A stretch of DNA of 64,000 bases from Candidatus Omnitrophota bacterium (GTDB lineage Bacteria; Omnitrophota; Gorgyraeia; 2-01-FULL-45-10). Shown one piece after another: positions 3,814-35,876 of this stretch (positions are counted from its first letter, which is position 1; the number at the start of each line of letters is the position of its first letter). The position numbers and the translations under genes were made by a program. The notes under the pieces are model-generated. The model was not told the DNA's origin and made no database searches. It saw only the letters and a list, made by a program, of their open reading frames with translations. Where the stretch lies: NCBI GenBank assembly GCA_030695905.1, contig JAUYOL010000043.1:998-64997 (forward strand), written 5' to 3'.

Positions 3814-6119
3814 AAGTTTTGGTATTTACAACATTATTTCCTAACAGCAAGATGCCGAATCACGGCATATTTGTCAAAACGAGAGTTAAGAACCTGGCAA
3901 AGGTATGTGATGTGCGGGTCATTGCGCCCATACCGCATTTTCCTAAAATAAATATAAATAAGAAATGGTTTAAGTTTAGCCAGGTCCCGACAGAGGAAGA
4001 GATAGATGGATTGAAGGTATATCATCCGCGCTACTTCGTAATGCCGAAATTCTGTCGGTCGCTCTATGCTTTTTTCATGTTTATAGATGTCCTAAGATTT
4101 GTGAAAAGGATTAAGAAAGAATTTGACTTTGATGTTATAGACGGGCATTTCATCTATCCGGATGGGCTTGCCGCGGTACTATTGGGGGCGGTTTTGAGAA
4201 AAAAGGTAATAGTTACGGCGAGAGGGACAGACATTAACTGGTATTCCAATTTTTGGATAATAAGAACCCTGATACGATATTGCCTGAAGAGGGCAGATGC
4301 TGTCATATCGGTAAATAGTGATCTAAAAAATAAGATGGTAGAATTAGGAATAGATGCAGATAAGATAAAAGTTATAAATAACGGAGTTGATTTTAGCAAA
4401 TTCTATGCTATGTCAAAAACAGAAGCGAAACGCGCTTTGGGCATAGCTAATAATAAAAAGGTGTTATTATCAGCCGGTAATCTTATCGAAACAAAAGGAT
4501 TTCATATTTTAATAAACGCTTTTTCGCTTATTAAAAATAAAGATGCCGTTCTCTATATTATAGGAGAAGGCCCTTATAGAAAAAATTTGGAAGCGCTTAT
4601 AGCAAGGGTCGGCTTGAAAGATAGAATAATGCTTGTTGGAGAGGTGCCGCATAATGAGCTTTATAAATGGTATTCTGCGGCTGATTTATTCTGCCTGACA
4701 AGTTTACGTGAGGGGTGGCCAAACGTCATACTTGAATCTTTATCCTGCGGTACACCGGCCCTTACTATGAATAAGTGGAGCCTATCCGAACTTATCGATA
4801 AAAACATGGGAATTTTGCTGGATTCTTATGAGCCGGTGACGATAGCTATGGCTATAGAAGTTGCCATAGACAGGCAGTGGGATGGGAAGAGTATAGCGGG
4901 TAATATGCAGAATTACAGCTGGGATGATACCACCAGTAAGTTATCGGAATTATTCAAAAAAACATTGCAAAGAGAAGATGTCTTATTTTTCTCATCAGAT
5001 GACTGGAATAGCGGCCTTAAGACGAGTAAATATCATATAGCAACCAGGCTGGCCAGGGATAGCAGGGTTTTCTTCATAAATTCTATAGGCTTAAGAACCC
5101 CATCTGTTACATCGCATGACTTTAAAAGAGTGATTGCGAAAATACGCGGATTTTTTAAAGGAGTCAAACAAATTAATAAGAATCTTTTTGTGTATACTCC
5201 GATAGCCGTTCCATTCCAGAAACATGGTTTTGTGCGATTTATGAATAATATGATAATAACCTTTCAAATAAAGATGATCATGCGCAGATTTAATATCAAA
5301 AGGCCAGCGGTATGGACATTTTTGCCGAATTCATTGGGCGTTATAAGAAAGATCGAAAGAAAACGCATTATCTATTATTGCGTCGATGATATGAGCGCGT
5401 TTAAAGGGGTTCCGGCAGATGTTATCAGCCGTCTGGATAGCGAGATGACAAGGCAGGCGGATATTGTATTTGCCGTTTCACAGGAGCTATTCAAAAAGAA
5501 GAAGGCAATAAATGAGAATACGTTTTATTCGCCTCACGGTGTTGACTTTGAACTTTTTAATAAGGCGGTGGTGGAAAAAGGTGTTATGAAACCGGCAGAT
5601 ATCGAAGATATAGGGCGCCCTATCATAGGATTCTACGGTCTGATATCCGGCGATTGGATAGATTATGATCTTATTCGTTTTCTTGCGCAAAAAAGGCCGG
5701 CTTGGTCATTTGTATTCGTAGGCAAGATAGATGCGGTTAAAGAAGGGCCGCCGAGGGCCAATAATATTTACTATTTGTCTGTGAAGCCCTATGAGGAACT
5801 ATACAAATACAGCCGTTTCTTTGATGTCGCGATGTTGCCATTTAATATAAATCAGCTTACCATGCATTCGCATCCTTTGAAGATACTTGAATATTTGTCA
5901 GCGGGCAAGCCGGTGGTTTCGATAGCAATTCCTGAAGTCATGAGATATGCCGATGTTATAGAAATAGCAGCCCGTTATGAAGAATTTTTAGATAAGATAG
6001 AAAGATCGCTTAAGCTTAACGACAGGAATGCTGTGGAGAGCCGTGTAAGATTTGCATCTTCCAACTCATGGGAAAAGAGATTCGATGAAATACAAAAAGC
6101 CATTGCTTATCACATGTAG
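3810..6119 (+). CDS. Two-domain glycosyltransferase (N-terminal GT4 module plus a second GT-B-like module)
   Basis: The N-terminal half carries a GT4 signature (REGWPNVILESLSCGTPAL). The C-terminal 380 aa forms a second GT-B-like domain. There is a 4-nt overlap with the upstream gene. Confidence 0.6.
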   Translation: MKVLVFTTLFPNSKMPNHGIFVKTRVKNLAKVCDVRVIAPIPHFPKININKKWFKFSQVPTEEEIDGLKVYHPRYFVMPKFCRSLYAFFMFIDVLRFVKRIKKEFDFDVIDGHFIYPDGLAAVLLGAVLRKKVIVTARGTDINWYSNFWIIRTLIRYCLKRADAVISVNSDLKNKMVELGIDADKIKVINNGVDFSKFYAMSKTEAKRALGIANNKKVLLSAGNLIETKGFHILINAFSLIKNKDAVLYIIGEGPYRKNLEALIARVGLKDRIMLVGEVPHNELYKWYSAADLFCLTSLREGWPNVILESLSCGTPALTMNKWSLSELIDKNMGILLDSYEPVTIAMAIEVAIDRQWDGKSIAGNMQNYSWDDTTSKLSELFKKTLQREDVLFFSSDDWNSGLKTSKYHIATRLARDSRVFFINSIGLRTPSVTSHDFKRVIAKIRGFFKGVKQINKNLFVYTPIAVPFQKHGFVRFMNNMIITFQIKMIMRRFNIKRPAVWTFLPNSLGVIRKIERKRIIYYCVDDMSAFKGVPADVISRLDSEMTRQADIVFAVSQELFKKKKAINENTFYSPHGVDFELFNKAVVEKGVMKPADIEDIGRPIIGFYGLISGDWIDYDLIRFLAQKRPAWSFVFVGKIDAVKEGPPRANNIYYLSVKPYEELYKYSRFFDVAMLPFNINQLTMHSHPLKILEYLSAGKPVVSIAIPEVMRYADVIEIAARYEEFLDKIERSLKLNDRNAVESRVRFASSNSWEKRFDEIQKAIAYHM

Positions 6120-8529
6120 TATTATTTTTGCGGGTTTAATCATTGCCAAGTGTGGAAATATGCCCGCGCTGGCTCAGGCAAGAGCGTTTATAGAAAAAGC
6201 CGAGCGGCATACACATGCGCTTCAGGGAATAAAAAATAAGGTTGACGCGGTAAAAGAGACATTTGAGGTCAAGGCGCCATCAATAAATATAGATGTGGAT
6301 GCCGCGAAGAACGGGCCTATCTACGGCGATCCGGAAGGGCTCGTGCGGGTCAAGGCACTTGAGGCAAAATTGCATAATATCGGGATAAAGAAAGACCACC
6401 CCAGAATATTCCTAGATCCTGATAATATAAATGTATGCAGGCAGCGTATCCTCAGGCGTCATCCGGCATTTAATAACATCATAGATCTTGCCGAGAAAGG
6501 CGATATTGTTAATCTGGCGTTCCTATATCTTATGAGGGAACATGATAATCCTGCTACAGCGTTACGGTGTTCAAAAGAGGTTATCAGGATGCTCGTGGAT
6601 AATGATCCTACGACCGGCGACAAAAGATTTGTCGGCAGAGAGATCGCCAAGATGGCGCTTGCCTTTGATTGGATATATAACGCCATGACAGATTCCCAGA
6701 GGAAGTATGTGGCCGAGAAATTATCTAACCTGGCAGGCATTAAAAAAAGAGCCAAAGCTATCAGGGAAGGATTAAAAGAGACGGGCGAGACATTTCATCG
6801 TGAGGACTGGATGTTTGATTCTTACCGGGCGTGGCCGGAAATTGCACTTGCGCACCATGTTCCGGATGCGGAATTTGTCTATAAATCGAGATGGAACCAT
6901 GATTGGTTTTGGGGAGACGCGGCGAGAATGTATGCGTATGCCGCAGACGGAACGCCTTTTGAGGGGTATTATGCAGGCGCGGATGGCGTAGATTGGTTTC
7001 TTGCGCTTAAGTCCGCTACCGGTATAAATTTAATAGACGGGGAAGATTACCCATGGTTTAAGAATACCGCTTACTATATATTCTATAGGCTGGATTTAGA
7101 GAGAGGGAGAGAGGCTTTACATCACGGTGTTACTATCGGAGGCGCTGGCTGTATTTCATATACAGAGGGATCGGTTGCATGGAAGATGAAAAAATTTTTA
7201 GGAAGGACCCTTCCCCTTGCCTACGAAAATCCATATATAAAATGGGTGGGCAATCATCAAATAGGTGTTTCGGATTGGATTCTTACAACGACCGGTTATG
7301 GCGGGCTGGAGGAGCTTGGCCCTATAGCAAGCGTCCTGTTTGATGACCTGCATGCCGAGAGTATTAGTCCTAATGATGCTGCGTATGAAAACTTTCCATA
7401 CGCAAAATTATTTTCGGGAGGAGATGAAGCGTATATGAGAAGTGGATGGACCGGGAAGCCCACGATAATTGGATTTAGATCCGCCCCTGCTTATACAAAA
7501 ACAAGTCATGGCGATTTTGATGTTAATACTTTTGTTATTTATAAGGATGGCGTCCTCGCTCCGGATTCAGGTGTTTACGATGCATATGTCGGCCAATCCA
7601 ATTATTTTTGCTACCAGAAGAATACAGCTGCCCATAATAATATTTTGGTGATAGACCCTTTTAGGCCTGATGAGCCAAAAAAGTTTGGGACAGCACCTGA
7701 TCCCGGAGGTGTTGATTTTGTTTTTACCAGAACCTTTGGCGCATCCAGCCGCTTTGGCAGGGAGGATGAATTTTTGCATAATCCACACGCGGATTGGGCG
7801 GATCTCGCGGCTTTTAAAACTACGCCAAATTATGATTATGTGGTGGGTAAGGCTAACAAGGCCTATAGAGACAGGCTGGATAAATATTATAGGACACTCG
7901 TATTTATAAGAAAAGGTAATGGTGGATATCTAATAGTTTATGATCAACTGAAACTAAAAAACAAAAATTATCAGATAAAATGGCTCCTTCACTTGGTAAC
8001 AGAGCCGGTTATAAAAGGTCAAATAGTAAAGAGTGAAGTGCCCGGCCACATAGAAATATATAAAGGTTATTATTTAAATGCTAAAAATGTATTTAATACG
8101 TCGAGCTTGTTTCTTAAAACGTTAAAACCGGAAAATTATCTTATCAGAAAAGTGGGCGGGTCGGGTTATGAATATTGGGTAGATGGCTCTAAGCCAAAGA
8201 ACTACCCTGTGGCTGATAGCGAGAAAAAAAGGATAGAGGAGCAGATGGGTGGAAAATGGCAGGAAGCCGGAACTTGGCGCATAGAGATTATGCCTCAAGA
8301 TAAAAGAGATCAGCACGATTTTATAAATGTATTTTATATAGGCGATGCCGATGAACAGCCAAATCCTAACGCCATCTCGCTAAAAGAGGATGCTTCAAGT
8401 TATATCATAAATATAGAGGATGAGCTTGCGCCGACAACTGTAACGTTTTTAAAGGGCGAAGAGCCCAAGGGAAGTATAATTATTAAAGATAAAATAAATG
8501 ATACCTTTCCCGATGTTAAGAAGAGATAA
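6085..8529 (+). CDS. Heparinase II/III-like (polysaccharide lyase-like) protein with N-terminal signal/anchor
   Basis: About 815 aa with a hydrophobic N-terminus (KPLLITCSIIFAGLIIA). The central alpha/alpha-toroid-like region has W/Y-rich motifs (NHDWFWGDAARMYAYAADG). The C-terminal beta-rich region (FIRKGNGGYLIVYDQLKLKN) resembles the Hepar_II_III domain. Start chosen at ATG 6085 (MKYKK), which overlaps the upstream gene end. Confidence 0.45.
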   Translation: MKYKKPLLITCSIIFAGLIIAKCGNMPALAQARAFIEKAERHTHALQGIKNKVDAVKETFEVKAPSINIDVDAAKNGPIYGDPEGLVRVKALEAKLHNIGIKKDHPRIFLDPDNINVCRQRILRRHPAFNNIIDLAEKGDIVNLAFLYLMREHDNPATALRCSKEVIRMLVDNDPTTGDKRFVGREIAKMALAFDWIYNAMTDSQRKYVAEKLSNLAGIKKRAKAIREGLKETGETFHREDWMFDSYRAWPEIALAHHVPDAEFVYKSRWNHDWFWGDAARMYAYAADGTPFEGYYAGADGVDWFLALKSATGINLIDGEDYPWFKNTAYYIFYRLDLERGREALHHGVTIGGAGCISYTEGSVAWKMKKFLGRTLPLAYENPYIKWVGNHQIGVSDWILTTTGYGGLEELGPIASVLFDDLHAESISPNDAAYENFPYAKLFSGGDEAYMRSGWTGKPTIIGFRSAPAYTKTSHGDFDVNTFVIYKDGVLAPDSGVYDAYVGQSNYFCYQKNTAAHNNILVIDPFRPDEPKKFGTAPDPGGVDFVFTRTFGASSRFGREDEFLHNPHADWADLAAFKTTPNYDYVVGKANKAYRDRLDKYYRTLVFIRKGNGGYLIVYDQLKLKNKNYQIKWLLHLVTEPVIKGQIVKSEVPGHIEIYKGYYLNAKNVFNTSSLFLKTLKPENYLIRKVGGSGYEYWVDGSKPKNYPVADSEKKRIEEQMGGKWQEAGTWRIEIMPQDKRDQHDFINVFYIGDADEQPNPNAISLKEDASSYIINIEDELAPTTVTFLKGEEPKGSIIIKDKINDTFPDVKKR

Positions 8530-9920: not shown

Positions 9921-11074
9921 TAATAATTTTTTGGATATCGATTTTGATGCTTTTTTATACCTATATAGGGTATCCCATATATGTATTCGTCAGGGCAAAG
10001 CGCTATAAAAATGCTGTCTTAAAAGACGCCGATTTTAGGCCGAAGGTCTCTGTTATTATGTCCGCATATAATGAAGGATCGTATATAGAGAAGAAGATCA
10101 AAAACCTTCTGGAGTCCAGCTATCCTAAGGACGACTTAGAAACATTGGTCGGTTCAGACGGGTCGACAGACGCTACCGATCAGATACTTTCACGCATGGC
10201 AGACAAAAGAGTAAAGGTTTTTTGCTATAAAGATCGGCGTGGAAAGCCCAGCGTCCTGAATGACCTGGTCCTGCAGGCAACCGGCGAGATATTGGTATTC
10301 TGTGATGTGCGCCAATTATTTGAAAAAAGCGCCATATCGGAGCTGGTATCAAATTTTTCCGATGAGAATATCGGATGCGTAAGCGGCGAGCTCATTTTTA
10401 AAAGTCTTGCGCAGGACACAGAAATTGCAAAAGGCGTGGGTGCGTATTGGGATTATGAAAAGTTTATCAGAAGGTGTGAAAGCGCTGTCCATTCTATGGT
10501 GGGTGCCACAGGCGCTATATATGCTATAAGAAAAGCCCTGTATTTGCCTGTGCCTTCCGATATAGTTCTCGATGACGTGTATATACCGCTTAATATCTCC
10601 AGGATGGGGTATAGAACAATATTGGATCAGGACGCAAAGGCTTACGACAGGCCTGCCATGGAGACATCAGAAGAATATAGAAGGAAGGTGAGGACATTGG
10701 CCGGAAACTACCAGATATTTTCTATGTTCAAGGATCTATTGGTGCCATTTTTGAGACCGGTATCATTAGCGCTGGTATCACATAAATTATTCCGTGTTAT
10801 TGCGCCATTTTTCATGATATCGGTTTTTGTGAGTAATCTGTTTATGGCGATGGAGGGCTCATATATTTTATTCTTGATGGCACAAATCGCGTTTTATGCA
10901 CTGGCTATAGTGGGCGCCCTTACATGCCGGCAAAAAAATAAGAAGTTTGTCATCAAGATAGCATCGACAGCCTACATCTTCTGCTTTCTTAATTTTACGG
11001 CTATCGTAGGTCTTTACAGATTTTTATCCGGAAAACAGAAGATAGCATGGGAAAGGTCAGAAGTCCGTGGATAA
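9917..11074 (+). CDS. Family 2 glycosyltransferase with C-terminal transmembrane segments
   Basis: GT-A signatures VIMSAYNE and VGSDGSTD, a DxD-like LDDVYIP, and a C-terminal multi-TM region. Confidence 0.7.
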   Translation: MIIIFWISILMLFYTYIGYPIYVFVRAKRYKNAVLKDADFRPKVSVIMSAYNEGSYIEKKIKNLLESSYPKDDLETLVGSDGSTDATDQILSRMADKRVKVFCYKDRRGKPSVLNDLVLQATGEILVFCDVRQLFEKSAISELVSNFSDENIGCVSGELIFKSLAQDTEIAKGVGAYWDYEKFIRRCESAVHSMVGATGAIYAIRKALYLPVPSDIVLDDVYIPLNISRMGYRTILDQDAKAYDRPAMETSEEYRRKVRTLAGNYQIFSMFKDLLVPFLRPVSLALVSHKLFRVIAPFFMISVFVSNLFMAMEGSYILFLMAQIAFYALAIVGALTCRQKNKKFVIKIASTAYIFCFLNFTAIVGLYRFLSGKQKIAWERSEVRG

Positions 11075-11903
11075 TAAATTAAAAGTTATAATTAAATTTG
11101 CGGCATGCTTAGTGTTGTCTTTGATAGCGTATATTCCTACTATTTGGTGGATGATAGATAGGTGGTCGGCAAAAGAGTCTTATTATTCACATGGATTTTT
11201 GATCCCCATAATATCTGTATTTATAATGTGGCAGAAAAGAAGCGTTTTAGGCAAAATAAAAATATCCGGGAATATGCTGGGTCTATGGATTATCACATTA
11301 TGCCTATTAATCCATGTTGTATGCGCGGCTCTTCGGATATATTTTCTGTCGGGATTTACATTGATAATGCTGATTTATGGCATGGTTCTATTTTTCTTTG
11401 GCCTTGAGATGATCCGCAAGCTTACATTCCCGATACTTTTCCTGTTTGCGATGGTTCCGTTACCGCTTGCTATAATCGGCAATCTTACGGTCCAGCTCAA
11501 ACTTCTGGCTACTCAATTATCGGTTCTCACTCTTAATAAAATAGGGTTTCGTTGTATACAGGATGGCAGTTTTATAAGAATGCCGTCTTCGTTCATTGAG
11601 GTTGCGGCGCCATGCAGCGGTCTTCGCTCAATAATATCGCTTGTTACGCTGGGGCTGCTTTTTGCTTATGTTGTAAAAACATCATTTCTTAAGAAGAGCA
11701 TACTATTCTTATCGTCGTTTCCCATAGCTATAGCTACGAATGTAATGAGGATAACTATGGTTTCAATTGTTAATGATCTTTACGGGGGAAAGGTTGCTAT
11801 GGGTGTTTTTCATGATTTTACAGGGTTTCTGGTATTTGCGGCAGCGTTTCTCGGGCTCTTCGGAATTGCTCAACTTATAGGAGCGAAACAAATTGAAATT
11901 TGA
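11067..11903 (+). CDS. Exosortase (EpsH/Xrt family transpeptidase)
   Basis: An eight-TM protein with the conserved Cys/Arg active-site block VAAPCSGLRSIISL. A downstream Asn/Arg is also present. The locus contains PEP-CTERM proteins. Confidence 0.7.
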   Translation: MDNKLKVIIKFAACLVLSLIAYIPTIWWMIDRWSAKESYYSHGFLIPIISVFIMWQKRSVLGKIKISGNMLGLWIITLCLLIHVVCAALRIYFLSGFTLIMLIYGMVLFFFGLEMIRKLTFPILFLFAMVPLPLAIIGNLTVQLKLLATQLSVLTLNKIGFRCIQDGSFIRMPSSFIEVAAPCSGLRSIISLVTLGLLFAYVVKTSFLKKSILFLSSFPIAIATNVMRITMVSIVNDLYGGKVAMGVFHDFTGFLVFAAAFLGLFGIAQLIGAKQIEI

Positions 11904-12528
11904 TAAAAATACGATTGGATTTGTAGCGTTGATAGTTATGTTACTGGCGGCGAGCACGATCTCTTTGGGATTATTCAGCAGAGAGATGATCGCAAGCGAT
12001 AAGCTGGATGTGCATGCGTTTCCAATGGCGGTAGGGCAATGGCAGGGCAGGGAATTGCCTATCACGGAAAAAGAATATGATATACTGGAAACGCGAAATT
12101 TGATTTCGAGGGAATATACGAATCCTTCCGGAGATAAATTGTACCTGCTCATTATTTATTCCGAAACAAATAGGTCTGTGTTTCATCCTCCCGAGGTATG
12201 CATGATGGGGGGCGGGCTTACCATAACGGATAAACAGGTGGATAAAGTTGGGTTGGACAGCAAAGCATTCACGACAAATAAGATATTTGCCCAGAAGGGC
12301 CAGTTTAAAGAGATAATCCTTAACTCTTACAAGGCAGGCAATCTCCATACAAGCAATTTCTACCTCCAGCAAACGTATTTGGCACTTCACCAGATCTTCG
12401 GACGCAATGTTCCAGGCGCGACGCTTCGAGTTTCAATGGCTGTCGGACACAGCGAGCGCGCGGCATTAGCTACTCTCAAAGATTTCCTCAGTAAATCCGC
12501 CACCATACTTGATAAATTAAGCAGTTAA
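11893..12528 (+). CDS. Exosortase-associated EpsI-family protein (single N-terminal TM, periplasmic domain)
   Basis: Sits immediately downstream of and overlapping the exosortase gene. Has an N-terminal TM (IGFVALIVMLLAASTISLGLF). The conserved block VFHPPEVCMMGGG is reminiscent of the EpsI HxPExC motif. Confidence 0.5.
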   Translation: MKFDKNTIGFVALIVMLLAASTISLGLFSREMIASDKLDVHAFPMAVGQWQGRELPITEKEYDILETRNLISREYTNPSGDKLYLLIIYSETNRSVFHPPEVCMMGGGLTITDKQVDKVGLDSKAFTTNKIFAQKGQFKEIILNSYKAGNLHTSNFYLQQTYLALHQIFGRNVPGATLRVSMAVGHSERAALATLKDFLSKSATILDKLSS

Positions 12529-12574
12529 GCGCTGTCCATTCAACTCAACACGTTACCCAAGAAGTGTTGAATTT

Positions 12575-12602
12575 ATGACAATCACCTGTCAGGGATTGTC
12601 AT
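12575..12602. promoter_or_regulatory. Near-perfect 28-bp palindrome ATGACAATCAcctgtcaggGATTGTCAT, a candidate enhancer/UAS for a bEBP
   Basis: Seen directly in the sequence. Nine-bp arms flank an inner CCTG/CAGG palindrome. An extra TGTCAT half-site lies at 12607-12612. The centre lies about 125 bp upstream of the sigma-54 promoter. Confidence 0.4.
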
Positions 12603-12712
12603 AGTTTGTCATTGAACTTCATATAATGACTCCTACCTCGCATTCTAACTCATTGAACTGCAAGTAGTTACAGCTTAGTAATTTTACGAATTATTTATAC
12701 ATTAATGAAGAT

Positions 12713-12728
12713 TGGCACAGATATTGCT
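12713..12728 (+). promoter_or_regulatory. Sigma-54 (-24/-12) promoter TGGCACagataTTGCT
   Basis: Exact match to the TGGCAC-N5-TTGC consensus, with correct GG-N10-GC spacing. It sits upstream of the PEP-CTERM/sugar-transferase operon. A sigma-54 activator gene lies 4.7 kb downstream. Confidence 0.5.
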
Positions 12729-12752
12729 TATACAGTATGTGATGAAATAAAA

Positions 12753-12770
12753 GCCTGCCTACCGGCAGGC
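12753..12770 (+). repeat. GC-rich hairpin GCCTGCC-tacc-GGCAGGC in the 5' leader; copy 1 of a repeated palindromic element
   Basis: A 7-bp perfect stem followed by an AGGGAG RBS and TTTTTT. A near-identical 22-nt element lies at 35853-35876. Confidence 0.5.
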
Positions 12771-12784
12771 AGGGAGTGTTTTTT

Positions 12785-12901
12785 ATGAAGAAGATGATGG
12801 AGTCGTTAAAAGAGATTTTCGAAGAACTTAAACACGAGATAGATGTGTATATGACTATACAGAGATATGCCCGTCTTTCGAAGAAATACAAGAGCACATA
12901 A
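12785..12901 (+). CDS. Small upstream ORF (38 aa, MKKMMESLKEIFEELKHEIDVYMTIQRYARLSKKYKST)
   Basis: A strong RBS AGGGAG lies 8 nt upstream of the ATG. Its TAA stop is immediately followed, in the same frame, by ATG 12902. It is too short for the ORF track. Confidence 0.3.
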   Translation: MKKMMESLKEIFEELKHEIDVYMTIQRYARLSKKYKST

Positions 12902-13075
12902 ATGGCTGTAAGAAAAATAAAATCCGCAGCAAAATACATAGTCTACTTTGCTTTGCCGCCCTTGGTGCTTCTTTACGCCATAAACCTCTGTTATGCGCAG
13001 AGTGGCCACGAGGCTCGAGCGATAGTGCCCGAACCAAGCACTACGGCTCTTCTTGCCACCGGATTTATCGGGTAT

Positions 13076-13684
13076 ATGACAAGATTCGCCAGAAAGCATT
13101 TCCGCGAATTCAAGAGGATATTCGATAATGTTATAGCAGGTATGGGAATAGCTTTGGCAGCGCCTTTAATCCTATTTACAGCCGTTATCATTAAGGTGGT
13201 ATCACCAGGTCCGATATTCTATAAGCAAGAGAGGGTAGGGTGGGGTGGAAAGACGTTCTATATATATAAGTTAAGAACTATGCGCATAGACGCTGAAAAA
13301 AACACAGGTCCGATGTGGGCAAAAGAAGATGATCCGCGCCTGATAAGATTTGGCAAGCTTATCAGAAAGATGCATATAGATGAATTACCCCAATTATATA
13401 ACGTGCTAAAAGGCGAAATGAGTATTGTCGGCCCAAGGCCCGAGAGGCCCGTGTTTGTTGAGAAACTAAGTAAAGAAGTTATCGATTATCGGAAGAGAAT
13501 ACAGATAAGGCCCGGCATAACCGGCCTTGCTCAAGTATGGCACAGATATGACGAAACCATTGCTGATGTAAGGAAGAAAGTCAAATACGATCTCCTGTAT
13601 ATAAGAGAGATGTGTTTGATGGTTGATCTAAGAATTCTTTTGCGTACCGTAATAGTTGCTGCGTTAGGGAAAGGGGCAAGATAG
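13076..13684 (+). CDS. Undecaprenyl-phosphate sugar phosphotransferase (bacterial sugar transferase, EpsB/WbaP C-terminal-domain type), exosortase-system associated
   Basis: Motifs PGPIFYKQERVG, DELPQLYNVLKGEMSIVGPRPE and YDLLYI. The conservative start is at M59 (ATG 13076). The open frame extends upstream to ATG 12902 and encodes a signal peptide plus a PEP-CTERM-like segment (see findings). Confidence 0.7.
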   Translation: MTRFARKHFREFKRIFDNVIAGMGIALAAPLILFTAVIIKVVSPGPIFYKQERVGWGGKTFYIYKLRTMRIDAEKNTGPMWAKEDDPRLIRFGKLIRKMHIDELPQLYNVLKGEMSIVGPRPERPVFVEKLSKEVIDYRKRIQIRPGITGLAQVWHRYDETIADVRKKVKYDLLYIREMCLMVDLRILLRTVIVAALGKGAR

Positions 13685-13692
13685 GGAAGACT

Positions 13693-14391
13693 ATGAAAAA
13701 ACTAATATTTGCTTTTGTGTTAATGAGTATATTTGCTGCTCAAGCGTACGCAGACACTGCCGGCGGTCCGCATCTTTGGTTAAGCACAAATTCTAATCAA
13801 TTTAATGAAGGCGGGATCGGTTATGTAGGATCAACATCCGGCTGGAATGACGAAAGCTATGTCGCAAATAATATGCCGTTTACGATGTATTTATATAATA
13901 CGGCGCCAGAAAACAAAGGTACGGCTTATGATATAGGACTTATTGTGGCAGTTCATGGGGGTGATACCGATGGTAGCATTACGATAGCGGATGCATTTGG
14001 GGTGGAAGAAACGTTTACATATTCGGACTTTACGAGTACTAATCCATATCCAGGCGGAGGCCACGGCGTCTATGATGGCGGGAGCGATGGTATTTATGCA
14101 GTATTAAAGCCAAGCAATAGTATAGATCTTACTTATGATAATACTGGTAATGAGAATATAACGAGCACCGCTTCAAGTTGGACAAAATTTGTGGTAAAGA
14201 GTTCTTCTTTTTCAGAGGTCCACTTCGATGCCAGATCGTTTGGCGGAAGCAATGGTGTATTTTATAACCCTGCTTCACATGATGTAAATTGGCCTGGTGA
14301 CGGAGATCCGACCGTTCCGGAGCCGGCAACGCTGTCGCTCTTGGGGTTGGGATTGGCGGGGTTATTGAGATTTAGAAAAAGAAAAGTATAA
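13693..14391 (+). CDS. PEP-CTERM sorting-domain secreted protein
   Basis: N-terminal signal peptide MKKLIFAFVLMSIFAAQAYA. Gly/Asp/Thr-rich body. C-terminal VPEPATLSLLGLGLAGLLRFRKRKV, i.e. a PEP motif, a TM segment and a basic tail. Confidence 0.75.
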   Translation: MKKLIFAFVLMSIFAAQAYADTAGGPHLWLSTNSNQFNEGGIGYVGSTSGWNDESYVANNMPFTMYLYNTAPENKGTAYDIGLIVAVHGGDTDGSITIADAFGVEETFTYSDFTSTNPYPGGGHGVYDGGSDGIYAVLKPSNSIDLTYDNTGNENITSTASSWTKFVVKSSSFSEVHFDARSFGGSNGVFYNPASHDVNWPGDGDPTVPEPATLSLLGLGLAGLLRFRKRKV

Positions 14392-14428
14392 TTTTCAATA
14401 AAATTCAGTTATGAGAGGAGGTGAAATA

Positions 14429-15103
14429 ATGAAAAAAGTGTTATTAGTAGTAGCAGCTGTTATATTTCTAGCGGCAGGGAATGCATACGCAATCGTTCCC
14501 ACGATCGATGGCTTAATGACAAGCTTGACAGAATGGGATGGATCGCAGTTATTTGGCGGTGATTCAAACGAAGCCAGTATTTCCGATAGCTGGGATATAA
14601 AGAACATATTCATGAAAGTAGTGGCGGGTGACGGCTGGTACTTCAGGATGGATACATATGGAACGCCGACATTTTCCGGTGGACCGGGCTCTGAGGGTGA
14701 GGAAGCTGCATTCAAATTTTTTCTCGATATCAACAATGACGATACTAGCGATTATCTGATAGATTTGAATAATAGGAACTACACTGCTCTAGGAATAGTA
14801 TCCGTGTATACTGGAGAACCTGCATTCACAGAGTTAGGGATATTAGGCACCAGTAATGGTCTATCAAGTATAGTAGAGATGTATGTGCCCGATAGTCTAC
14901 TCTCAACGGATGTATTTTTTGACAATGTTGCTCTGAGTCCGTTTGGTCTGCGCGCGCGTCTCGATGGCAATGGAGATGAGCCGGACGATAGGTTGCCGGG
15001 GAGCGGCTACATCAAAACGCCCGAACCGGGCAGCGCTATGCTTCTTGGTATGGGGTTAATAGGGCTGGTTGGAAGGTTGTTTCGTAAAAAGGCTAAGGCA
15101 TAA
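14429..15103 (+). CDS. PEP-CTERM sorting-domain secreted protein
   Basis: RBS GGAGG before ATG 14429. Signal peptide MKKVLLVVAAVIFLAAGNAYA. C-terminal TPEPGSAMLLGMGLIGLVGRLFRKKAKA. Confidence 0.75.
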   Translation: MKKVLLVVAAVIFLAAGNAYAIVPTIDGLMTSLTEWDGSQLFGGDSNEASISDSWDIKNIFMKVVAGDGWYFRMDTYGTPTFSGGPGSEGEEAAFKFFLDINNDDTSDYLIDLNNRNYTALGIVSVYTGEPAFTELGILGTSNGLSSIVEMYVPDSLLSTDVFFDNVALSPFGLRARLDGNGDEPDDRLPGSGYIKTPEPGSAMLLGMGLIGLVGRLFRKKAKA

Positions 15104-15276
15104 TTCCGTATATAGCGTATAGTGCTTATAATGCAATACGCTATTACGGGAGGATGCTTGAACCAGTAAGCATGCTTATGTGGCGAGAGCATAAGGCCGA
15201 AAAGTGTTTTATGTTCTCCCACCGGACTTATAACTTATAATTACTTGGGGGAGAGTACTCTTTAGAAAAGAATTGA

Positions 15277-15308
15277 GGGGTAGGGATGTAAATTTCTACC
15301 CCTTTTTT
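15277..15308 (+). terminator. Rho-independent terminator (GGGGTAG...CTACCCC followed by TTTTTT) ending the PEP-CTERM operon
   Basis: A 7-bp GC-rich stem, a 13-nt loop and a T6 run, located 175 nt after the last PEP-CTERM gene. Confidence 0.5.
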
Positions 15309-15349
15309 CTTTACTTAGGCTATGCTTAGTATATAATATTGGGCTGACC

Positions 15350-16219
15350 ATGAAATACAATATTAGAAAAATCTGGATGGATTCTTTGGGCCTGATGATA
15401 AATCAGCCGATCATCATTATGCCATTTGTGTTAATAGCGTTTTTTGAGGCTCTTGCGCTGGAAGTAGTGTATTTTTCTACCAGACCCCCGATTCTGCCGA
15501 TAGCAGGCCCTGTAATAAAAAAATTGTTTGGAGAACAGTTTCTGCATTATCCGGCGTATCTTGTCAGTCTGTCGAAGTTATTTTATTATCTTCAAATAGT
15601 GATCTATATTATTGCCGGAGCGTTTCTCGTAGGTATTAGTGTAAATATTTTCAAGAATATCAAGGAGAAGCTTCCTGTAAGGGCCAAGGCCATGGTAAAA
15701 AACTCCTTAAAGAATTACGCATACTTTTTCGGCTATGCCCTTATTGTGGTATTCATGACATTCTTGCTAAAAAAGGTAGATGTCTATGTTTTTTCTAAAT
15801 TGTTTAAACTCGGATTGAAATTTTTGCCGCATATCCAGCCTCAAATTTATTCCATCTGCCTGATGATGGCTATATTTGTTTCAAATATTATCCTGCAGGC
15901 TTTTGTCATATTGACCATACCTATCATAGTCATAGATAAGATGCCGCTTTTAAAGGCATTTTTAAAAAGCATGTCCTTGGGTTTTCACAACTTCGGCGCG
16001 ATCATTGCGTTGATATTTTTACCTTTTTTAATATACCTGCCTATATCTGTTTTAAAAAGTGTTTCTGATGTTTTGATAAATAAAACCTTCCCGGAGATAA
16101 GCTTCTACATTACAGCCGCTGGAATAATAGCGTCAATATTTCTGGATTGTTTTATCATAATATGTATTTCACAGTTTTTGCTTATTAAGCAAAAAGAACC
16201 GCTTAAGAATACAGCATGA
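15350..16219 (+). CDS. Polytopic integral membrane protein of unknown function (about 8 predicted TM helices)
   Basis: The ORF is hydrophobic throughout and has no recognisable catalytic motif. An ATGA overlap with the downstream gene implies an operon. Confidence 0.4.
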   Translation: MKYNIRKIWMDSLGLMINQPIIIMPFVLIAFFEALALEVVYFSTRPPILPIAGPVIKKLFGEQFLHYPAYLVSLSKLFYYLQIVIYIIAGAFLVGISVNIFKNIKEKLPVRAKAMVKNSLKNYAYFFGYALIVVFMTFLLKKVDVYVFSKLFKLGLKFLPHIQPQIYSICLMMAIFVSNIILQAFVILTIPIIVIDKMPLLKAFLKSMSLGFHNFGAIIALIFLPFLIYLPISVLKSVSDVLINKTFPEISFYITAAGIIASIFLDCFIIICISQFLLIKQKEPLKNTA

Positions 16220-17091
16220 AGAAAATTATATTGATTTTAATATCGATTCTTGTGGCAATATTCGTTATCCTATCGGTCTTTGGGATGGGCGGTGAATACG
16301 AGGCAGAAAAATTGTTTTATCGGGCAATGAAGGTTAACTCAAAGATTACGATTAATCCTGATGTAGCTCCACCCGCGCTTCTTTTGGTCGTAGAGAATAA
16401 TCTTAATAAACTAATTACGAAATATCCAAAGGCCAATATAACAAAGACCGCTAACATAGCGCTTTTGGAATTCTATATAGCCCATAAAAACTATAACAAA
16501 GGCATGTCTTTGGCAGGCAGCATGATACAAACATATAAGGAAGATCTTTTCATCCTTAGCGTGGCTCAGTTCCTCAAGGGTGTTATATATGAGAAACAAA
16601 ATGATTGGTCACGTGCCCTTACAGAGTTTATTACGCTGCGGGATAAATATCCGAATACTCAGCTCGGCGTGCAGATACCTCTTTATATCGCAAAATACTA
16701 TGATACTAAGGGAGAGGACTCCAAGGCAATGGAAGCATATGGCCAGGCCCAGTCGTTCTACGAGAATATGGAGAAAGAATACGAAGGGAAGAATATGGGA
16801 TATATAGCTTCCGCTATGTTAATTCAAACATTTGTGAGCTCAAGAAATTATGAGAAAGCAGGAGCGTCTATAGAATATGCAATTGATAAATATTATAGCC
16901 AGATGGCTTTGGTTCAACTATTGCCGCTTGTGGAAAATATAATTGTTACAAAGCTGAAGAACTCCGAGAAGGCAGTAGATATCTATAATAATATTTTAGC
17001 GAAGTCGAAAGACGAAAAATTAAAAAAAGTTTTACAAAAAAGAATAGATGAGTTGACTGGCAAGGGTCCGGTTAGTGTTTCAAAAAGTTAG
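16216..17091 (+). CDS. N-terminally membrane-anchored alpha-helical (TPR-like) repeat protein, unknown function
   Basis: N-terminal TM IILILISILVAIFVILSVF followed by Y/A/K-rich helical repeats (AMEAYGQAQSFYENMEKEYEG). Confidence 0.35.
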   Translation: MKKIILILISILVAIFVILSVFGMGGEYEAEKLFYRAMKVNSKITINPDVAPPALLLVVENNLNKLITKYPKANITKTANIALLEFYIAHKNYNKGMSLAGSMIQTYKEDLFILSVAQFLKGVIYEKQNDWSRALTEFITLRDKYPNTQLGVQIPLYIAKYYDTKGEDSKAMEAYGQAQSFYENMEKEYEGKNMGYIASAMLIQTFVSSRNYEKAGASIEYAIDKYYSQMALVQLLPLVENIIVTKLKNSEKAVDIYNNILAKSKDEKLKKVLQKRIDELTGKGPVSVSKS

Positions 17092-17128
17092 AATCATTTC
17101 TCTTGCATAACATGATAAGTGTGATAAG

Positions 17129-17413
17129 ATGAGCAGGATTAGTAATACCGGCGAAAAAAATCGTTTTAAAAAATTGTCGTTGATGGGGAGAAAGTATAAC
17201 GGGATAATAAATGAAATATCTAATCCCATTGACGCGACAAATCGTTTTATAAATCTGGCTCTGCATAGTATTGGTGATAATTCGCAGGGACGGCAGTTTC
17301 TTCTGGAGTCGAAGCAGGGGATAAAGAAGACAGCAATGCTTCTCAAGAGACTGAACGATTATTCAAAAAAGATAGAGAGCGAGATTCGCGAAATGGTGGA
17401 CATGAATGAGTAA
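17129..17413 (+). CDS. Small hypothetical protein (94 aa), possibly co-translated with the downstream regulator
   Basis: Its stop overlaps the start of the sigma-54 activator gene (ATGAATGAGTAA). No SD and no recognisable domain. Confidence 0.2.
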   Translation: MSRISNTGEKNRFKKLSLMGRKYNGIINEISNPIDATNRFINLALHSIGDNSQGRQFLLESKQGIKKTAMLLKRLNDYSKKIESEIREMVDMNE

Positions 17414-18776
17414 ACCCCGCATTCTGATATTAAGCGAAGACAGACTTGACCAGAAGTCGCTTTATGAATTGATCCGCCACCATGGCTATGAGGCGGACAT
17501 CGCCAACTCTGCCGAAGAAGCCATCTCTTCACTCGAAGATAAGGTTTTTAACGTTATACTTGCCGATCTGGCTGCCGCAAAGAATGCCGAATCTATAAGG
17601 TCCATCAAATCCAAATCTCTTTCTACGGAAATAGTATTATTATCATCTTATGAAAACGTGCACGAAGAAATAAGCGGCCTTGTTTCCGATTGCCTTATAA
17701 GGCCGATTGAAGACAGAAAGATCATTAATTCAATAGAAAAAGCACTGCAGAAATTGCCACAGCAGAAAAGCAAGCCATCTTTTATTAAAAAATTTCTTCA
17801 TCCCCAAAACGATAATTTTTATGATCTGGTGGGCAAAGACCCATCCATGAAAGAAATATATTCTATAATAGAGCGCATATCCAGCACAAAAGCCACAATA
17901 TTATTGCGCGGAGAGAGCGGCACCGGCAAAAGAGTGATCGCTCGCGCTATCCATAAGGCTGATAAGAAAAGGCGCGATAAGCCCTTTATGGAAATATCCT
18001 GCGGCGCGCTCCCAAGAGAGATCATAGAAAGCGAGTTATTTGGCCATACAAAAGGGGCGTTTACAGGCGCTATAAATGACCGTAAAGGCCGCTTTGAACT
18101 TGCCCATGGCGGAACAGTGCTTTTGGACGATATAGATTCTTTTTCGCTGGATCTTCAGGTAAAACTATTAAGAGTGTTGCAGCATAAAGAATTCGAGCTC
18201 GTCGGTGACCACAAAACAATAAAAGTCGATGTCCGCTTTATAGTCTCCACGAATCAGGATCTGGAAAAATTGGTTGCGGAGAAAAAGTTCAGAGAAGACT
18301 TGTATTATCGCCTGAATGTAATATCGATACTTGTTCCACCCTTAAGGAAGCGCAAAGACGACCTGCCGCTATTAGTAGACCATCTTATAAACCTTTATTC
18401 CAAAGAAAATCATAAGAAGATAGAAGGTGTTTCAAAAGAGACGATGGATATTCTGATGAAATATGATTGGCCGGGTAATGTCAGGGAACTTGAAAATATA
18501 GTGGAGCGCGCAGTCATACTCGATACAGATAATATTATTGATAGTAACGATCTGCCGGGCATCCTTGTCAGGAACACGGTTCAGGCAGGTATTGCCGAAA
18601 GCGAAAATGCCGAATCGCTGAAAGACGCATTAAGAGAGCCTGAAAAAGTATATATACTTCAGGTGATGAAAGAGGTGAAGTGGAACAAGAAGAAGGCAGC
18701 AAAAAAATTAGGCGTGAACAGGACGACCCTGTATAATAAATTAAAAAAATATAATATTTTATCATCCCTTCAATAA
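17406..18776 (+). CDS. Sigma-54-dependent transcriptional activator (atypical receiver domain, AAA+ sigma-54 interaction domain, Fis-type HTH)
   Basis: Walker A GESGTGKRVIARAIH. GAFTGA loop motif (HTKGAFTGA). ELFGH. Arginine finger region. C-terminal HTH KKAAKKLGVNRTTLYNKLKKY. The receiver has SED in place of DD and LIRP in place of the K-P motif. Confidence 0.8.
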   Translation: MSKPRILILSEDRLDQKSLYELIRHHGYEADIANSAEEAISSLEDKVFNVILADLAAAKNAESIRSIKSKSLSTEIVLLSSYENVHEEISGLVSDCLIRPIEDRKIINSIEKALQKLPQQKSKPSFIKKFLHPQNDNFYDLVGKDPSMKEIYSIIERISSTKATILLRGESGTGKRVIARAIHKADKKRRDKPFMEISCGALPREIIESELFGHTKGAFTGAINDRKGRFELAHGGTVLLDDIDSFSLDLQVKLLRVLQHKEFELVGDHKTIKVDVRFIVSTNQDLEKLVAEKKFREDLYYRLNVISILVPPLRKRKDDLPLLVDHLINLYSKENHKKIEGVSKETMDILMKYDWPGNVRELENIVERAVILDTDNIIDSNDLPGILVRNTVQAGIAESENAESLKDALREPEKVYILQVMKEVKWNKKKAAKKLGVNRTTLYNKLKKYNILSSLQ

Positions 18777-18793
18777 ATTAGGCTTAATAATTA

Positions 18794-19837
18794 ATGTTTT
18801 ATAAAGATATCAACCTGTCGGATCTTGTAAATCTTGCCGAGTGGCAGAAAATACAGGATTCTTTTTCCGAAGTCCTCGAAGTTACATTAAGAACGATCTC
18901 TCTGGATGGCAAACTTCTCTCGCGTATAAGCCGTCCTTCCAGATACTGCACCGAAATACTCCCAAAATTTACAAATCTCAATAATATCTGCGGTGATAAC
19001 GCATCTGCCGGTGCCGCAAAAAAACTTTCCCAGATAGTTCAAGACGGAGGGAATTTTAAACTGCCTTTTGGCATAGATGTGTCTATCATTCCCATTAAAG
19101 CGATCGGCAATAAAGACGTAGCTTATATTATGGTGGGCCCGCTTATACTTAAAAGCCGCAAGGCGGAGTCAGAATACGCGGAAGAAGCTAAAAAAGCGGG
19201 GATCGATCCCGATACATTGATGGATGTGCTCATAGATATAAATGTCTTTTCCTATAATAAAGTTCACTCTATGACAAGCCTGATAAAAGATATATTTTCA
19301 CATATGGCACAAACGGAATATCATAAGAAGAGATTGGGGGAGATAGCTCCAGAGGTAGTAGAATTAGACCCTCTATTTTCAAAATATTATGAAGAGAAGA
19401 TATTAAGAGCTATGCTTAAGACGTGTTCTTTAGTTCTTAACGCGGACTCTGGTTCTATAATGACAGTTGATAAGGACACCAAAACTTTGCATATAAAAGC
19501 CGCTTCAAAGCTTGATAGTAAGATAATCAATAGTACAAGCATAAAAATAGGGGAGGGGATAGCCGGAATTGCGGTGGCCACTGCCATGCCCATAATATTG
19601 CCTAAGGATAAGGATAAGAACGGTATTTCAGATAAGATGAAAAGAAGCGGTATAAAGTCCTCTATGATAGTGCCATTTAATAAAGGCAGCGACCACGACG
19701 TCTATGGTGTTATCAATCTTAATATTACGCGAAAGAGCGCAGGTTTTTCTGAAAAAGATATCAATTTAGTAAAAGAGCTGGTCAATATGACCAGCATCGC
19801 GTTAATTCCGCTGTATAAAAAACCTTCAACTCAGTAA
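18794..19837 (+). CDS. PocR-like sensor domain plus GAF domain protein
   Basis: The N-terminal region has a PocR-like pattern (IQDSFSEV...ISLDGKLLS...SRYCTEI...ICGDNAS). The C-terminal region is GAF-like (IKIGEGIAGIAVATAMPIIL...VYGVINLN). Confidence 0.45.
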   Translation: MFYKDINLSDLVNLAEWQKIQDSFSEVLEVTLRTISLDGKLLSRISRPSRYCTEILPKFTNLNNICGDNASAGAAKKLSQIVQDGGNFKLPFGIDVSIIPIKAIGNKDVAYIMVGPLILKSRKAESEYAEEAKKAGIDPDTLMDVLIDINVFSYNKVHSMTSLIKDIFSHMAQTEYHKKRLGEIAPEVVELDPLFSKYYEEKILRAMLKTCSLVLNADSGSIMTVDKDTKTLHIKAASKLDSKIINSTSIKIGEGIAGIAVATAMPIILPKDKDKNGISDKMKRSGIKSSMIVPFNKGSDHDVYGVINLNITRKSAGFSEKDINLVKELVNMTSIALIPLYKKPSTQ

Positions 19838-20247
19838 GAAATAATTCCTTTCTTTTCCATCTCTTTTATCTCTTCTTCAGATGGGAGTTTTGGCTCTTTT
19901 CTGGGAATGGGACCGACAGCTAATTGTTTGGAGGCCTCTAATGCTTTTTGCTGCGCAAAAGCCTCGGCTCTATTAACGTTTCTGGTATGTTCCGCTTCCA
20001 ATTCCCGCTCAGCTGCTATTTTCCGTCTTTCTTCTAATTTCTCCATATCCTGGGTAGGGCGTATCGTGGTTGCAGTTGGTATGGCATATTCCATCTGCTG
20101 TATTTGCTCTGCCGGAGGCTTCTCTTTGGGCTCTGACAAATACGGAGCTACATTACGTAAGAAAAGCATGTTAGTGACCAGTAGCATCACTATTGTAAAA
20201 AGAGCTATTATGAGAGCGGCTATGATGACGATTTTTTTTATTTTCAT
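19831..20247 (-). CDS. Small bitopic membrane protein with a charged coiled-coil tail, last gene of the pilin-like operon
   Basis: N-terminal TM IVIIAALIIALFTIVMLLV followed by an E/K/R-rich helix. Confidence 0.35.
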   Translation of the reverse strand: MKIKKIVIIAALIIALFTIVMLLVTNMLFLRNVAPYLSEPKEKPPAEQIQQMEYAIPTATTIRPTQDMEKLEERRKIAAERELEAEHTRNVNRAEAFAQQKALEASKQLAVGPIPRKEPKLPSEEEIKEMEKKGIISY

Positions 20248-20266
20248 CGCGCTATTCCTATTGCTT

Positions 20267-35852: not shown

Positions 35853-35876
35853 ATTGCCTGCCGGTCAGGCAGGCTT
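35853..35876. repeat. Copy 2 of the palindromic element (TGCCTGCCGGTcAGGCAGGCTT), overlapping the stop codon of the radical SAM gene and lying 4 nt after the glgC stop
   Basis: A 7-bp stem GCCTGCC/GGCAGGC identical to the copy at 12753-12770. The two copies differ by a single inserted base in the loop. Confidence 0.45.

Follow-up and report, generated by a model that had tools for sequence, protein, structure and literature searches.

The prediction of exosortases dates from 2006 (Haft et al. 2006, PMC1569441), and the PEP-CTERM proteins of the system described there carry a signal peptide at their N-terminus along with a Pro-Glu-Pro motif followed by a transmembrane (TM) helix with a glycine pattern and a basic cluster, and are encoded beside exosortase, EpsI and polysaccharide genes. 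In that work, 99 of 167 proteobacterial PEP-CTERM genes were preceded by a motif with a -24/-12 site, reported only in Proteobacteria, and for Aquincola a PEP-CTERM gene dependent on RpoN has been demonstrated (PMC9850573). Among enzymes that initiate polysaccharides, the closest described proteins are the small phosphoglycosyl transferase PglC (PDB 8e37 and 8g1n) and the larger TIGR03013 transferases, WbaP and WcaJ, and in Myxococcus xanthus a small partner protein, EpsW, activates the initiating transferase EpsZ (PMC12802240). Here we describe how a locus from Candidatus Omnitrophota compares with these systems. It lies within 64,000 nucleotides of a Candidatus Omnitrophota bacterium (GCA_030695905.1, contig JAUYOL010000043.1, positions 998-64,997, forward strand), a stretch that we call the window and whose own coordinates we use throughout, features with a strand lying on the forward one unless stated otherwise. 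We read positions 12529-13684 as the regulatory stretch and the two leading genes of a sigma-54-dependent operon that lies within an exosortase exopolysaccharide locus, the operon encoding a 38-residue small protein, a priming sugar transferase and two PEP-CTERM cargo proteins. We found that the transferase carries a PEP-CTERM-type module ahead of its catalytic domain, and that the small protein encoded directly before it is conserved. An N-terminal exosortase tag on a priming enzyme and the accompanying mini-protein both appear to be undescribed; full-text literature searches yielded no report of either a phosphoglycosyl transferase with a PEP-CTERM signal or the 38-residue family, and no NCBIfam model covers the PEP-bearing transferase architecture or that family. 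To our knowledge the exosortase reaction, its acceptor and the reason for the constant presence of exosortases in polysaccharide loci are still open questions, and an exosortase recognition signal on the enzyme that initiates a polysaccharide would offer a concrete and testable physical link between both processes.

A PEP-CTERM-type module in the priming transferase

The transferase open reading frame (ORF) at 12902-13684 encodes 260 residues and has a signal-peptide-like start that ends CYA32/Q33. Pro-Glu-Pro occupies residues 43-45 (13028-13036), residue 59 is a methionine (M59, at 13076), and at about residue 68 the Bac_transf body sets in. The extension consists of a basic n-region, a hydrophobic core, a short variable spacer (9 residues in the window) and the PEP/TM/basic segment. 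Its candidate signal peptide, delimited by alignment, covers residues 1-32 (12902-12997) and ends in CYA; the (C/S)(Y/F)A-Q motif is conserved in 39 aligned homologues, nonsynonymous differences (pN, 0.13-0.28) are far below synonymous ones (pS, 0.60-0.86), residues 2-30 form a helix in the AlphaFold model, and cleavage is predicted before Q33. The PEP-CTERM-type module itself, residues 42-72 (13025-13117), comprises VPEP, a TM helix with G54 and G57, and the basic cluster FARKHFREFKR, and scores 21.5 bits with PF07589 (cut-off 20.7) and 20.4 bits with TIGR02595 (cut-off 16). P43, E44, G54, G57 and R64 are invariant in the 39 aligned homologues (A63 and, in parentheses, P45 are also listed), and in these proteins the basic run, FARKRFREFKR, merges into the KRxFD start of the catalytic core. 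In the comparison with the orthologous locus L089, pN/pS is 0.13/0.86 for the signal peptide and spacer and 0.01/0.78 for the PEP module. The earlier note on this DNA had read a signal peptide and a PEP-CTERM-like segment in frame from 12902 and had proposed to align orthologous loci over this extension, and its reading is borne out: the extension is kept, under purifying selection at the amino-acid level, and the module passes the cut-offs of both families. The other elements that the note lists were likewise found at the positions it gives, and most are conserved in the related loci.

Additional support comes from the cargo proteins. A hidden Markov model (HMM) built from 43 local cargo tails matches the window's module (E = 1.2e-4) in the same register as in the tails themselves. 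Across 4663 ORFs the N-terminal or internal matches of this model at E < 0.01 were transferase modules only, the remaining non-terminal matches being near-C-terminal or secondary ones within cargo proteins, and it matches 119 of the 120 best transferase homologues. In the reverse direction, a search of 1.84 billion representative proteins with a profile of 39 module positions gave 135 matches, about 37 of them transferase-linked and about 98 to ordinary PEP-CTERM tails over positions 2-27.

The remainder of the protein (13103-13684) is a PglC-like small phosphoglycosyl transferase core with a re-entrant helix, a catalytic domain and an Asp160-Glu161 dyad (PF02397, 214.8 bits). The dyad is invariant in the 39 homologues and aligned with the DELPQL of PglC, and PglC residues 7-182 (8e37) align with transferase residues 68-251, such that Bac_transf core, re-entrant helix and DE dyad correspond end to end. 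Because PglC begins at residue 62-68 of the transferase, residues 1-61 are an add-on, and unlike PglC, which has no TM helices, the window enzyme adds a signal peptide and one true TM helix and is not purely monotopic; besides the re-entrant helix it has two hydrophobic ones, at residues 2-30 and about 45-60. It shares with the TIGR03013 transferase, WbaP and WcaJ the catalytic domain and the role of priming enzyme of an exosortase-linked polysaccharide locus, but scores 264.4 bits with TIGR03013 (cut-off 393.35) and matches only positions 239-443 of 443, the four-TM and DUF N-terminal half of the large monotopic enzymes being replaced by the signal peptide and PEP module. Likewise, although the parts of the module, the gene's place beside exosortase, EpsI and polysaccharide genes and the HMM scores above curated cut-offs are those of the PEP-CTERM/exosortase system, the 'cargo' of the window protein is about 10 residues long and falls to zero in relatives that begin directly with M-PEP. 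The presumed partner of the module is the exosortase at 11067-11903, an EpsH-family protein (TIGR02602 8TM_EpsH, 172.5 bits, cut-off 105.6) that fits none of the named subtypes and remains unclassified, reaching 176.6 bits with the XrtA model, below its cut-off of 208.

The transferase family comprises at least 120 close homologues and about 37 clusters at 50% identity, seen in metagenome-assembled genomes (MAGs) that bear the label of Omnitrophota, of Planctomycetota (anammox Brocadiaceae among them) or of one of a few further taxa. All of the best 120 homologues have PEP within their first 110 residues; they divide into 86 with a signal peptide, 25 that begin M-PEP and 9 to which the small protein is fused. 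M-PEP starts are found in the Planctomycetota loci L008, L016 and L026 (PDP in L052), and L081 has an M-PEP-type gene with no signal-peptide coding region. Longer forms also occur: about 50 residues separate signal peptide and PEP in L002-L004, 77 residues precede PEP in P0164, P0167 consists of a complete choice-of-anchor N domain (NF038141, 53.8 bits vs 40), a PEP-CTERM segment (21.8 bits) and then the transferase, and P0209 has a domain of about 260 residues fused through PEP-CTERM to the transferase. In P0164, P0167 and P0209 an entire extracytoplasmic domain, in effect a cargo protein, thus shares a single polypeptide with the priming enzyme. The PEP/TM/basic segment is never lost among these relatives. 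Most likely the family arose by fusion of a PEP-CTERM cargo gene to a downstream small transferase gene, with later loss of the cargo, and all forms would share one mature topology: the periplasmic tail is short or missing, PEP lies at the outer face, a single TM helix leads to the basic cluster on the inner side, and the enzyme is cytoplasmic. Natural variants with full cargo, with a short spacer or without any N-terminal extension are thereby available for experiments. We note that V42, directly before PEP, is encoded by GTG (13025-13027), and that an internal start at GTG 13025 would give exactly the M-PEP form of the 219-residue relatives. A separate observation concerns P0155, P0159, P0166, P0169 and similar long predicted proteins with 2-10 PEP-CTERM-like stretches; P0159 and P0169 read like merged tandem PEP-CTERM genes, with a new signal peptide after each basic tail (P0159 as near-identical repeats), and such merged calls may stem from read-through of stop codons or from genes having been called under a wrong genetic code.

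The gene order is also consistent with a tie between the module and exosortases. In all eight close loci whose contig reaches upstream, the transferase gene is directly 3' of exosortase and EpsI, apart from a three-gene insertion in L087. As a control set we used the matches listed from a whole-protein-alignment scan of GTDB, which are mostly ordinary transferases: among them an exosortase is encoded within 7 kb at 6 of 11 PEP-bearing loci vs 5 of 69 with a transferase that lacks PEP, and the initial counts, 5/10 vs 6/70, gave a Fisher p of 0.003.

The 38-residue protein and the sigma-54 control region

The 38-codon ORF at 12785-12901, encoding MKKMMESLKEIFEELKHEIDVYMTIQRYARLSKKYKST, ends in TAA (12899-12901) immediately before ATG 12902 in the same frame, just as the earlier note had placed it under the label of a uORF. 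The ORF is indeed there, but that label undersells it, as the comparisons below indicate that it is a real protein gene under purifying selection, and in some genomes it is fused to the transferase. We compared nine orthologous loci (L081 and L083-L090), whose transferases are 64-86% identical to the window's, together with about eight more distant loci from the GTDB scan. The pattern MKKxxExLxxxxxEIKKxIDVYLxIQRYxRxSRK is present in every locus examined, and over ten loci the gene has a pS of 0.76 and a pN of 0.25, with pN < pS in 45/45 pairs and differences per codon position of 0.31, 0.17 and 0.58, a bias that is absent from the other two reading frames. A profile search found 34 stand-alone homologues of 34-61 residues, none with a Pfam family and two named 'hypothetical protein' in the source; the contigs of the 6 comparable homologues match, by size, contigs carrying transferase homologues. 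Moreover, the small protein is fused in frame to the transferase in L084 and in 9/120 best transferase homologues, and since such natural fusions exist we suggest, by Rosetta-stone logic, that both proteins work together. In the AlphaFold model of one fusion (P0040) the small-protein segment is a helix with a confidence (pLDDT) of 92-93. These data define an unannotated family of 38-residue proteins tied to the priming enzyme. Similar to EpsW, the window's protein is a small cytoplasmic protein proposed to act directly on a priming enzyme; EpsW, however, is a phosphorylated single-domain response regulator of about 120 residues, whereas the 38-residue helix has no known family and its interaction is deduced from gene fusion and translational coupling.

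The junction between the two genes varies. It reads TAAATG in the window, L083, L086, L089 and L090, TAA plus 2 nt in L081, TAG plus 4 nt in L087, TAA plus 5 nt in L088 and an ATGA overlap in L085. The TAA, whose conservation the earlier note had asked about, is therefore kept as TAAATG in five loci and gives way to an offset, an overlap or a fusion in the rest; because this junction recurs in five independent loci, we rejected the notion that TAA 12899 is a sequencing error or a pseudogene break. There is no obvious Shine-Dalgarno sequence before ATG 12902, and the transferase thus probably depends on translational coupling to the small-protein gene through the TAA-ATG.

Upstream of these genes, positions 12529-12784 read like a textbook sigma-54 promoter. 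The -24/-12 element TGGCACagataTTGCT at 12713-12728 is the sole exact TGGCAC-N5-TTGCW match in the 64 kb, with its GG and GC dinucleotides correctly spaced. By itself such a match is only suggestive, as shuffles lead one to expect 0.11 exact matches (at least one in 10/100 shuffles) and 1.46 at one mismatch; it becomes convincing because it is conserved. TGGCAY-N5-WTGCTTATA is kept in 9/9 close loci (L083 begins within the leader, without the promoter, and the nine are the other eight loci and the window), and a -24/-12 element precedes the transferase gene in seven distant loci, exact in L002 and L003, with one mismatch in L001, L004 and L005, with two in L007, and as CGGCAC-N5-TTGCT in the Brocadiaceae locus L008, for a total of 16 related loci. 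Transcription is predicted to start near 12739. A candidate upstream activator sequence follows from an inverted-repeat and array scan at 12574-12612. Two 10-nt arms, TATGACAATC / GATTGTCATA, 100% complementary, lie at 12574-12603 with 10 non-palindromic bases between them, and an array of half-sites repeated every 10-11 bp, TGACA-N6-TGTCA-N5-TGTCA-N5-TGTCA, extends over 12576-12611 and is matched in 0/100 shuffles even when two mismatches are allowed. The core GATTGTCATrGTwTGTCAT is kept in most of the nine loci (partly degenerate in L084 and L085) and 106 bp separate the last half-site from TGGCAC in 8/9 loci, 107 bp in one, while the DNA between enhancer and promoter is much less conserved, with few invariant columns in the alignment of the intergenic regions. 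The perfect -24/-12 element of the earlier note therefore stands, as does a putative enhancer at the usual distance; its 28-bp near-perfect palindrome holds as far as the perfect arms go, but is interrupted by the 10-base gap and is better described as the half-site array.

Midway between enhancer and promoter, the alignment shows a box with the core CAA-N4-TTR (CAAgtagTTA, 12661-12670) and the invariant columns A138, A142, T144 and T145; the core is seen by eye in 7 loci, and L086 reads ATCAAtcacTTA. From the consensus WATCAANNNNTTR we infer that this box is a site for integration host factor (IHF). Another conserved box, TGTCCA-N7-TCAACAC-N12-GTGTTGA, stands directly 3' of the EpsI stop codon (12532-12573), contains a second inverted repeat, AACTCAACAC / GTGTTGAATT, at 12542-12573, and is kept in L001 and in 8 of the 9 aligned loci, all but L090, whose stretch does not extend that far. 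The box might serve a second regulator or belong to the enhancer as its distal end. No further sigma-54 promoters or enhancer copies were found in the intergenic DNA of the window, and matches to either with 1-2 mismatches fall where ORFs of at least 120 residues run mainly on the opposite strand. In L087, three opposite-strand genes (positions 3935-5494 of that locus, for a 23S rRNA-intervening-sequence protein and two ORF6N-domain proteins) separate EpsI from the regulatory region, and enhancer, promoter and small-protein gene are intact despite this insertion.

In the leader, the earlier note placed a GC hairpin and then an AGGGAG ribosome-binding site. Both are present. The hairpin, GCCTGCC-tacc-GGCAGGC at 12753-12770 (centroid -14.9 kcal/mol, z -2.2), is however absent from 8/8 other loci, including L089, at 85% protein identity, whose leader reads GATATTA-AAGGAGTGTTTTTTATG, and so is not a conserved regulatory part; for the same reason, and with no Rfam match (best rpfG, 15.9 vs 75.9 bits), we rejected a conserved attenuator or riboswitch. 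Its stem scores terminator-like on both strands and recurs at 35856-35874 between the convergent genes 34614-35852 (+) and 35865-36749 (-), where it probably represents either a terminator that works in both directions or a small palindromic repeat, one that came to lie in the sigma-54 leader too, and the leader copy looks like a strain-specific, recently inserted terminator-type palindrome. The Shine-Dalgarno AGGGAG (12771-12776), 8 nt before ATG 12785, has a counterpart in L089 (AAGGAGtgttttttATG) and purine-rich equivalents in L087, L088 and L090. In L081, L084, L085 and L086 the small-protein ATG is only 14-16 nt after the -12 GC, and the mRNA would therefore be near-leaderless; aligned with this start, the window keeps a relic mini-ORF, ATG-AAA-TAA (12742-12750), and its small protein uses instead the new, Shine-Dalgarno-led ATG 12785.

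A regulatory cassette at 15350-19837 encodes a 289-residue membrane protein, a TPR protein, a 94-residue protein, a sigma-54 activator and a PocR-GAF protein. The activator (17406-18776) has a receiver, an AAA+ domain with GAFTGA and an HTH_8 domain, with AtoC/NtrC-type matches at E = 1e-113, and the cassette is syntenic with the promoter in 8 loci (L001, L002 in part, L007, L081 and L085-L088); on account of the GAFTGA motif and this synteny the activator is the natural candidate regulator, as the earlier note had proposed. That note's wiring of an exosortase locus to sigma-54 is likewise upheld by the conserved promoter, but is not new in kind, since sigma-54 control of PEP-CTERM genes was already known (PMC1569441). 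The locus resembles the PrsK/PrsR/PrsT system (PMC1569441) and Aquincola (PMC9850573) in having an enhancer motif and a -24/-12 element upstream of PEP-CTERM genes, and close by the genes for an NtrC-type response regulator and a TPR protein. It differs from them in phylum, in an enhancer of TGTCA repeats rather than TTTACA, in having a PocR-GAF protein and the 94-residue protein and no PrsK-type kinase (none lies in 15350-20300), and in a promoter from which both the priming transferase and the cargo genes are driven. Neither the activator as a PrsR equivalog (TIGR02915, 333.9 bits vs a cut-off of 502.6, the best match being a generic AtoC) nor the TPR protein as PrsT (no PrsT match) could be sustained. 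By our data, exosortase systems outside the Proteobacteria would also come under sigma-54 control, the enhancer differing in sequence. The 94-residue ORF (17129-17413) overlaps the start of the activator gene, has no Pfam or NCBIfam match, is kept in synteny in 7 loci (L001, L002, L081 and L085-L088; E = 1e-9 to 1e-45), and to our eye its segment IINEISNPIDAT recalls a histidine-kinase H-box without the histidine.

Possible roles of the module and the small protein

We propose the following model. The NtrC-type activator, encoded 4.5 kb downstream, would bind the TGACA/TGTCA half-site array, and a DNA bend at the IHF-like box would bring it to sigma-54 polymerase at TGGCAC-N5-TTGCT, with transcription starting near 12739. 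Ribosomes would initiate at ATG 12785, make the 38-residue helical cytoplasmic protein, stop at TAA and restart at ATG 12902. The transferase would then be inserted with a cleavable signal peptide, leaving about 10 periplasmic residues and PEP at the outer face, then one TM helix, the basic cluster inside and the PglC-like re-entrant helix and catalytic domain in the cytoplasm, a topology that would match that of exosortase substrates, except that the enzyme stands where these have a short C-terminal tail. The exosortase encoded upstream could recognise PEP/TM/basic and hold or clip the priming enzyme at the sorting machine, so that polysaccharide initiation and PEP-CTERM sorting would be coupled in space and stoichiometry, the 38-residue protein acting as partner or regulator of the transferase. 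We consider it reasonably probable that the adjacent exosortase recognises the module and tethers, or clips, the enzyme in this way, and the role of the tag would most likely be to dock the enzyme on the exosortase or to have it processed there.

Several points speak against such a role. Exosortase signals are defined as C-terminal, yet the module covers residues 42-72 of 260 and is followed by a 190-residue transferase, and we know of no exosortase that takes a substrate with a cytoplasmic domain of this size after the basic cluster. The PEP HMM scores are barely above threshold, and TIGR02595 reaches E <= 0.01 in only 13/39 family members. In five PEP-bearing loci (L005, L014, L016, L026 and L052) the 7-kb flank shows no exosortase. 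A scan of window ORFs turned up no rpoN, and as the M-PEP forms have nothing to sort, cleavage cannot be the conserved function. The AlphaFold models, which yield helices and confidence values and not contacts, are mediocre (pLDDT 70-71, and < 50 in the PEP linker), and the organism is uncultured.

One alternative is that PEP/TM/basic is a mere membrane anchor left by an old cargo-transferase fusion, which stabilises or orients the enzyme (e.g. for dimerisation) and has no present dealings with exosortase. The full-cargo forms P0167 and P0209 do show a fusion origin, the five PEP-bearing loci without a nearby exosortase and the M-PEP forms with nothing to be sorted are as expected of an anchor, and large monotopic transferases also have extra N-terminal TM helices (TIGR03025 and WbaP alignments). 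A plain anchor, however, need not hold P43, E44, G54 and G57 invariant in the register of the cargo tails, need not show a pN of 0.01 and need not outlast the loss of the signal peptide in representatives of both Omnitrophota and Planctomycetota, nor does it call for a gene placed directly after exosortase-EpsI in 8/8 close loci reaching upstream (with the three-gene insertion in L087), and we regard it as unlikely, though the most serious of the alternatives. More speculatively, and with a good deal less confidence, the transferase could be a permanent pseudo-substrate in the exosortase groove (a 'leaving group' in the long forms), its undecaprenyl-phosphate-linked sugar being handed directly to the exosortase as the long-sought PEP-CTERM acceptor and the 38-residue protein gating the complex; were this so, both the acceptor and the way in which the exosortase pathway is physically organised would be identified. 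We give slightly less credence again to a truly cleaved, zymogen-like substrate, in which an exosortase cut at PEP activates, releases or turns over the enzyme and the long forms deliver cargo 1:1 with it. The real cargo domains before PEP in the long forms, the selection on signal peptide and spacer in the window lineage and a topology identical to that of substrates would suit it, but 25/120 close homologues and several Planctomycetota proteins begin M-PEP and offer nothing to cut off, and a cut would change little, as TM helix and basic cluster would both stay with the enzyme.

Two further alternatives concern the reading frames themselves. The 38-codon ORF might be a pure translational device, a ribosome-loading leader on a leaderless or short-leader mRNA whose peptide is functionless, which would fit the near-leaderless relatives (L081, L084, L085 and L086, with ATG 14-16 nt after the -12 element) and the coupling expected of an ATG 12902 without obvious Shine-Dalgarno. 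Yet selection on the ORF is strong at the amino-acid level, EIKKxIDVYLxIQRYxR is kept across loci whose transferases share just ~62-87% identity, natural fusions with the transferase exist and the helix is confidently predicted, so we think a functionless peptide improbable. Finally, the earlier note had offered M59 (13076) as an alternative start of the transferase, with the upstream frame making a separate tiny signal-peptide plus PEP-CTERM peptide. An ATG does exist there and PglC-like enzymes start about there, but no stop codon interrupts 12902-13076, position 59 is M, I, V or L in homologues, residues 59-72 are the conserved basic cluster of the module and no homologue is called from this position; we rejected this start, as M59 is not conserved and lies inside the conserved module, and give it almost no chance of being correct.

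Gene order and other features of the locus

By NCBIfam and Pfam, the genes upstream of the control region encode, in order, a Wzy-like protein, an acetyltransferase, two double-GT4 proteins, an 825-residue protein, two deacetylases, a GT2 protein, the exosortase and EpsI, the last an exosortase-associated protein (11893-12528; TIGR02914, 76.7 bits, cut-off 42.8) and the final gene before the regulatory region. EpsI is followed by the 256-bp intergenic region, the 38-residue ORF, the transferase, the two PEP-CTERM proteins, a terminator-like hairpin, a sigma-70-like promoter and the regulatory cassette. The first cargo protein of the operon (13693-14391) is PepA-like (TIGR02595, 27.1 bits; floc_PepA, 38.8 bits, below cut-off), and the second (14411-15103) has the tail KTPEPGSAMLLGMGLIGLVGRLFRKKAKA. 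Consensus scans place the hairpin, with 13 pairs and a T-run, at 15275-15304, the probable end of the sigma-54 operon, and the sigma-70-like promoter 3' of it at 15310-15337. The remainder of the window is housekeeping (Pst/PhoU/PhoR-PhoB, purine and pyrimidine synthesis, glutamate synthase (GOGAT) and glutamine synthetase (GS)), and the closest relatives are MAGs labelled Candidatus Omnitrophota. Within the polysaccharide cluster, the 825-residue ORF (6052-8529) has no Pfam match, and related loci have upstream, at or near the corresponding position, a large ORF (669-1040 residues) with GH123 glycoside-hydrolase domains. The glycosyltransferases at 1564-3813 and 3810-6119 are of unusual length, 749 and 769 residues, and the first of them consists of two complete GT4 modules in tandem.

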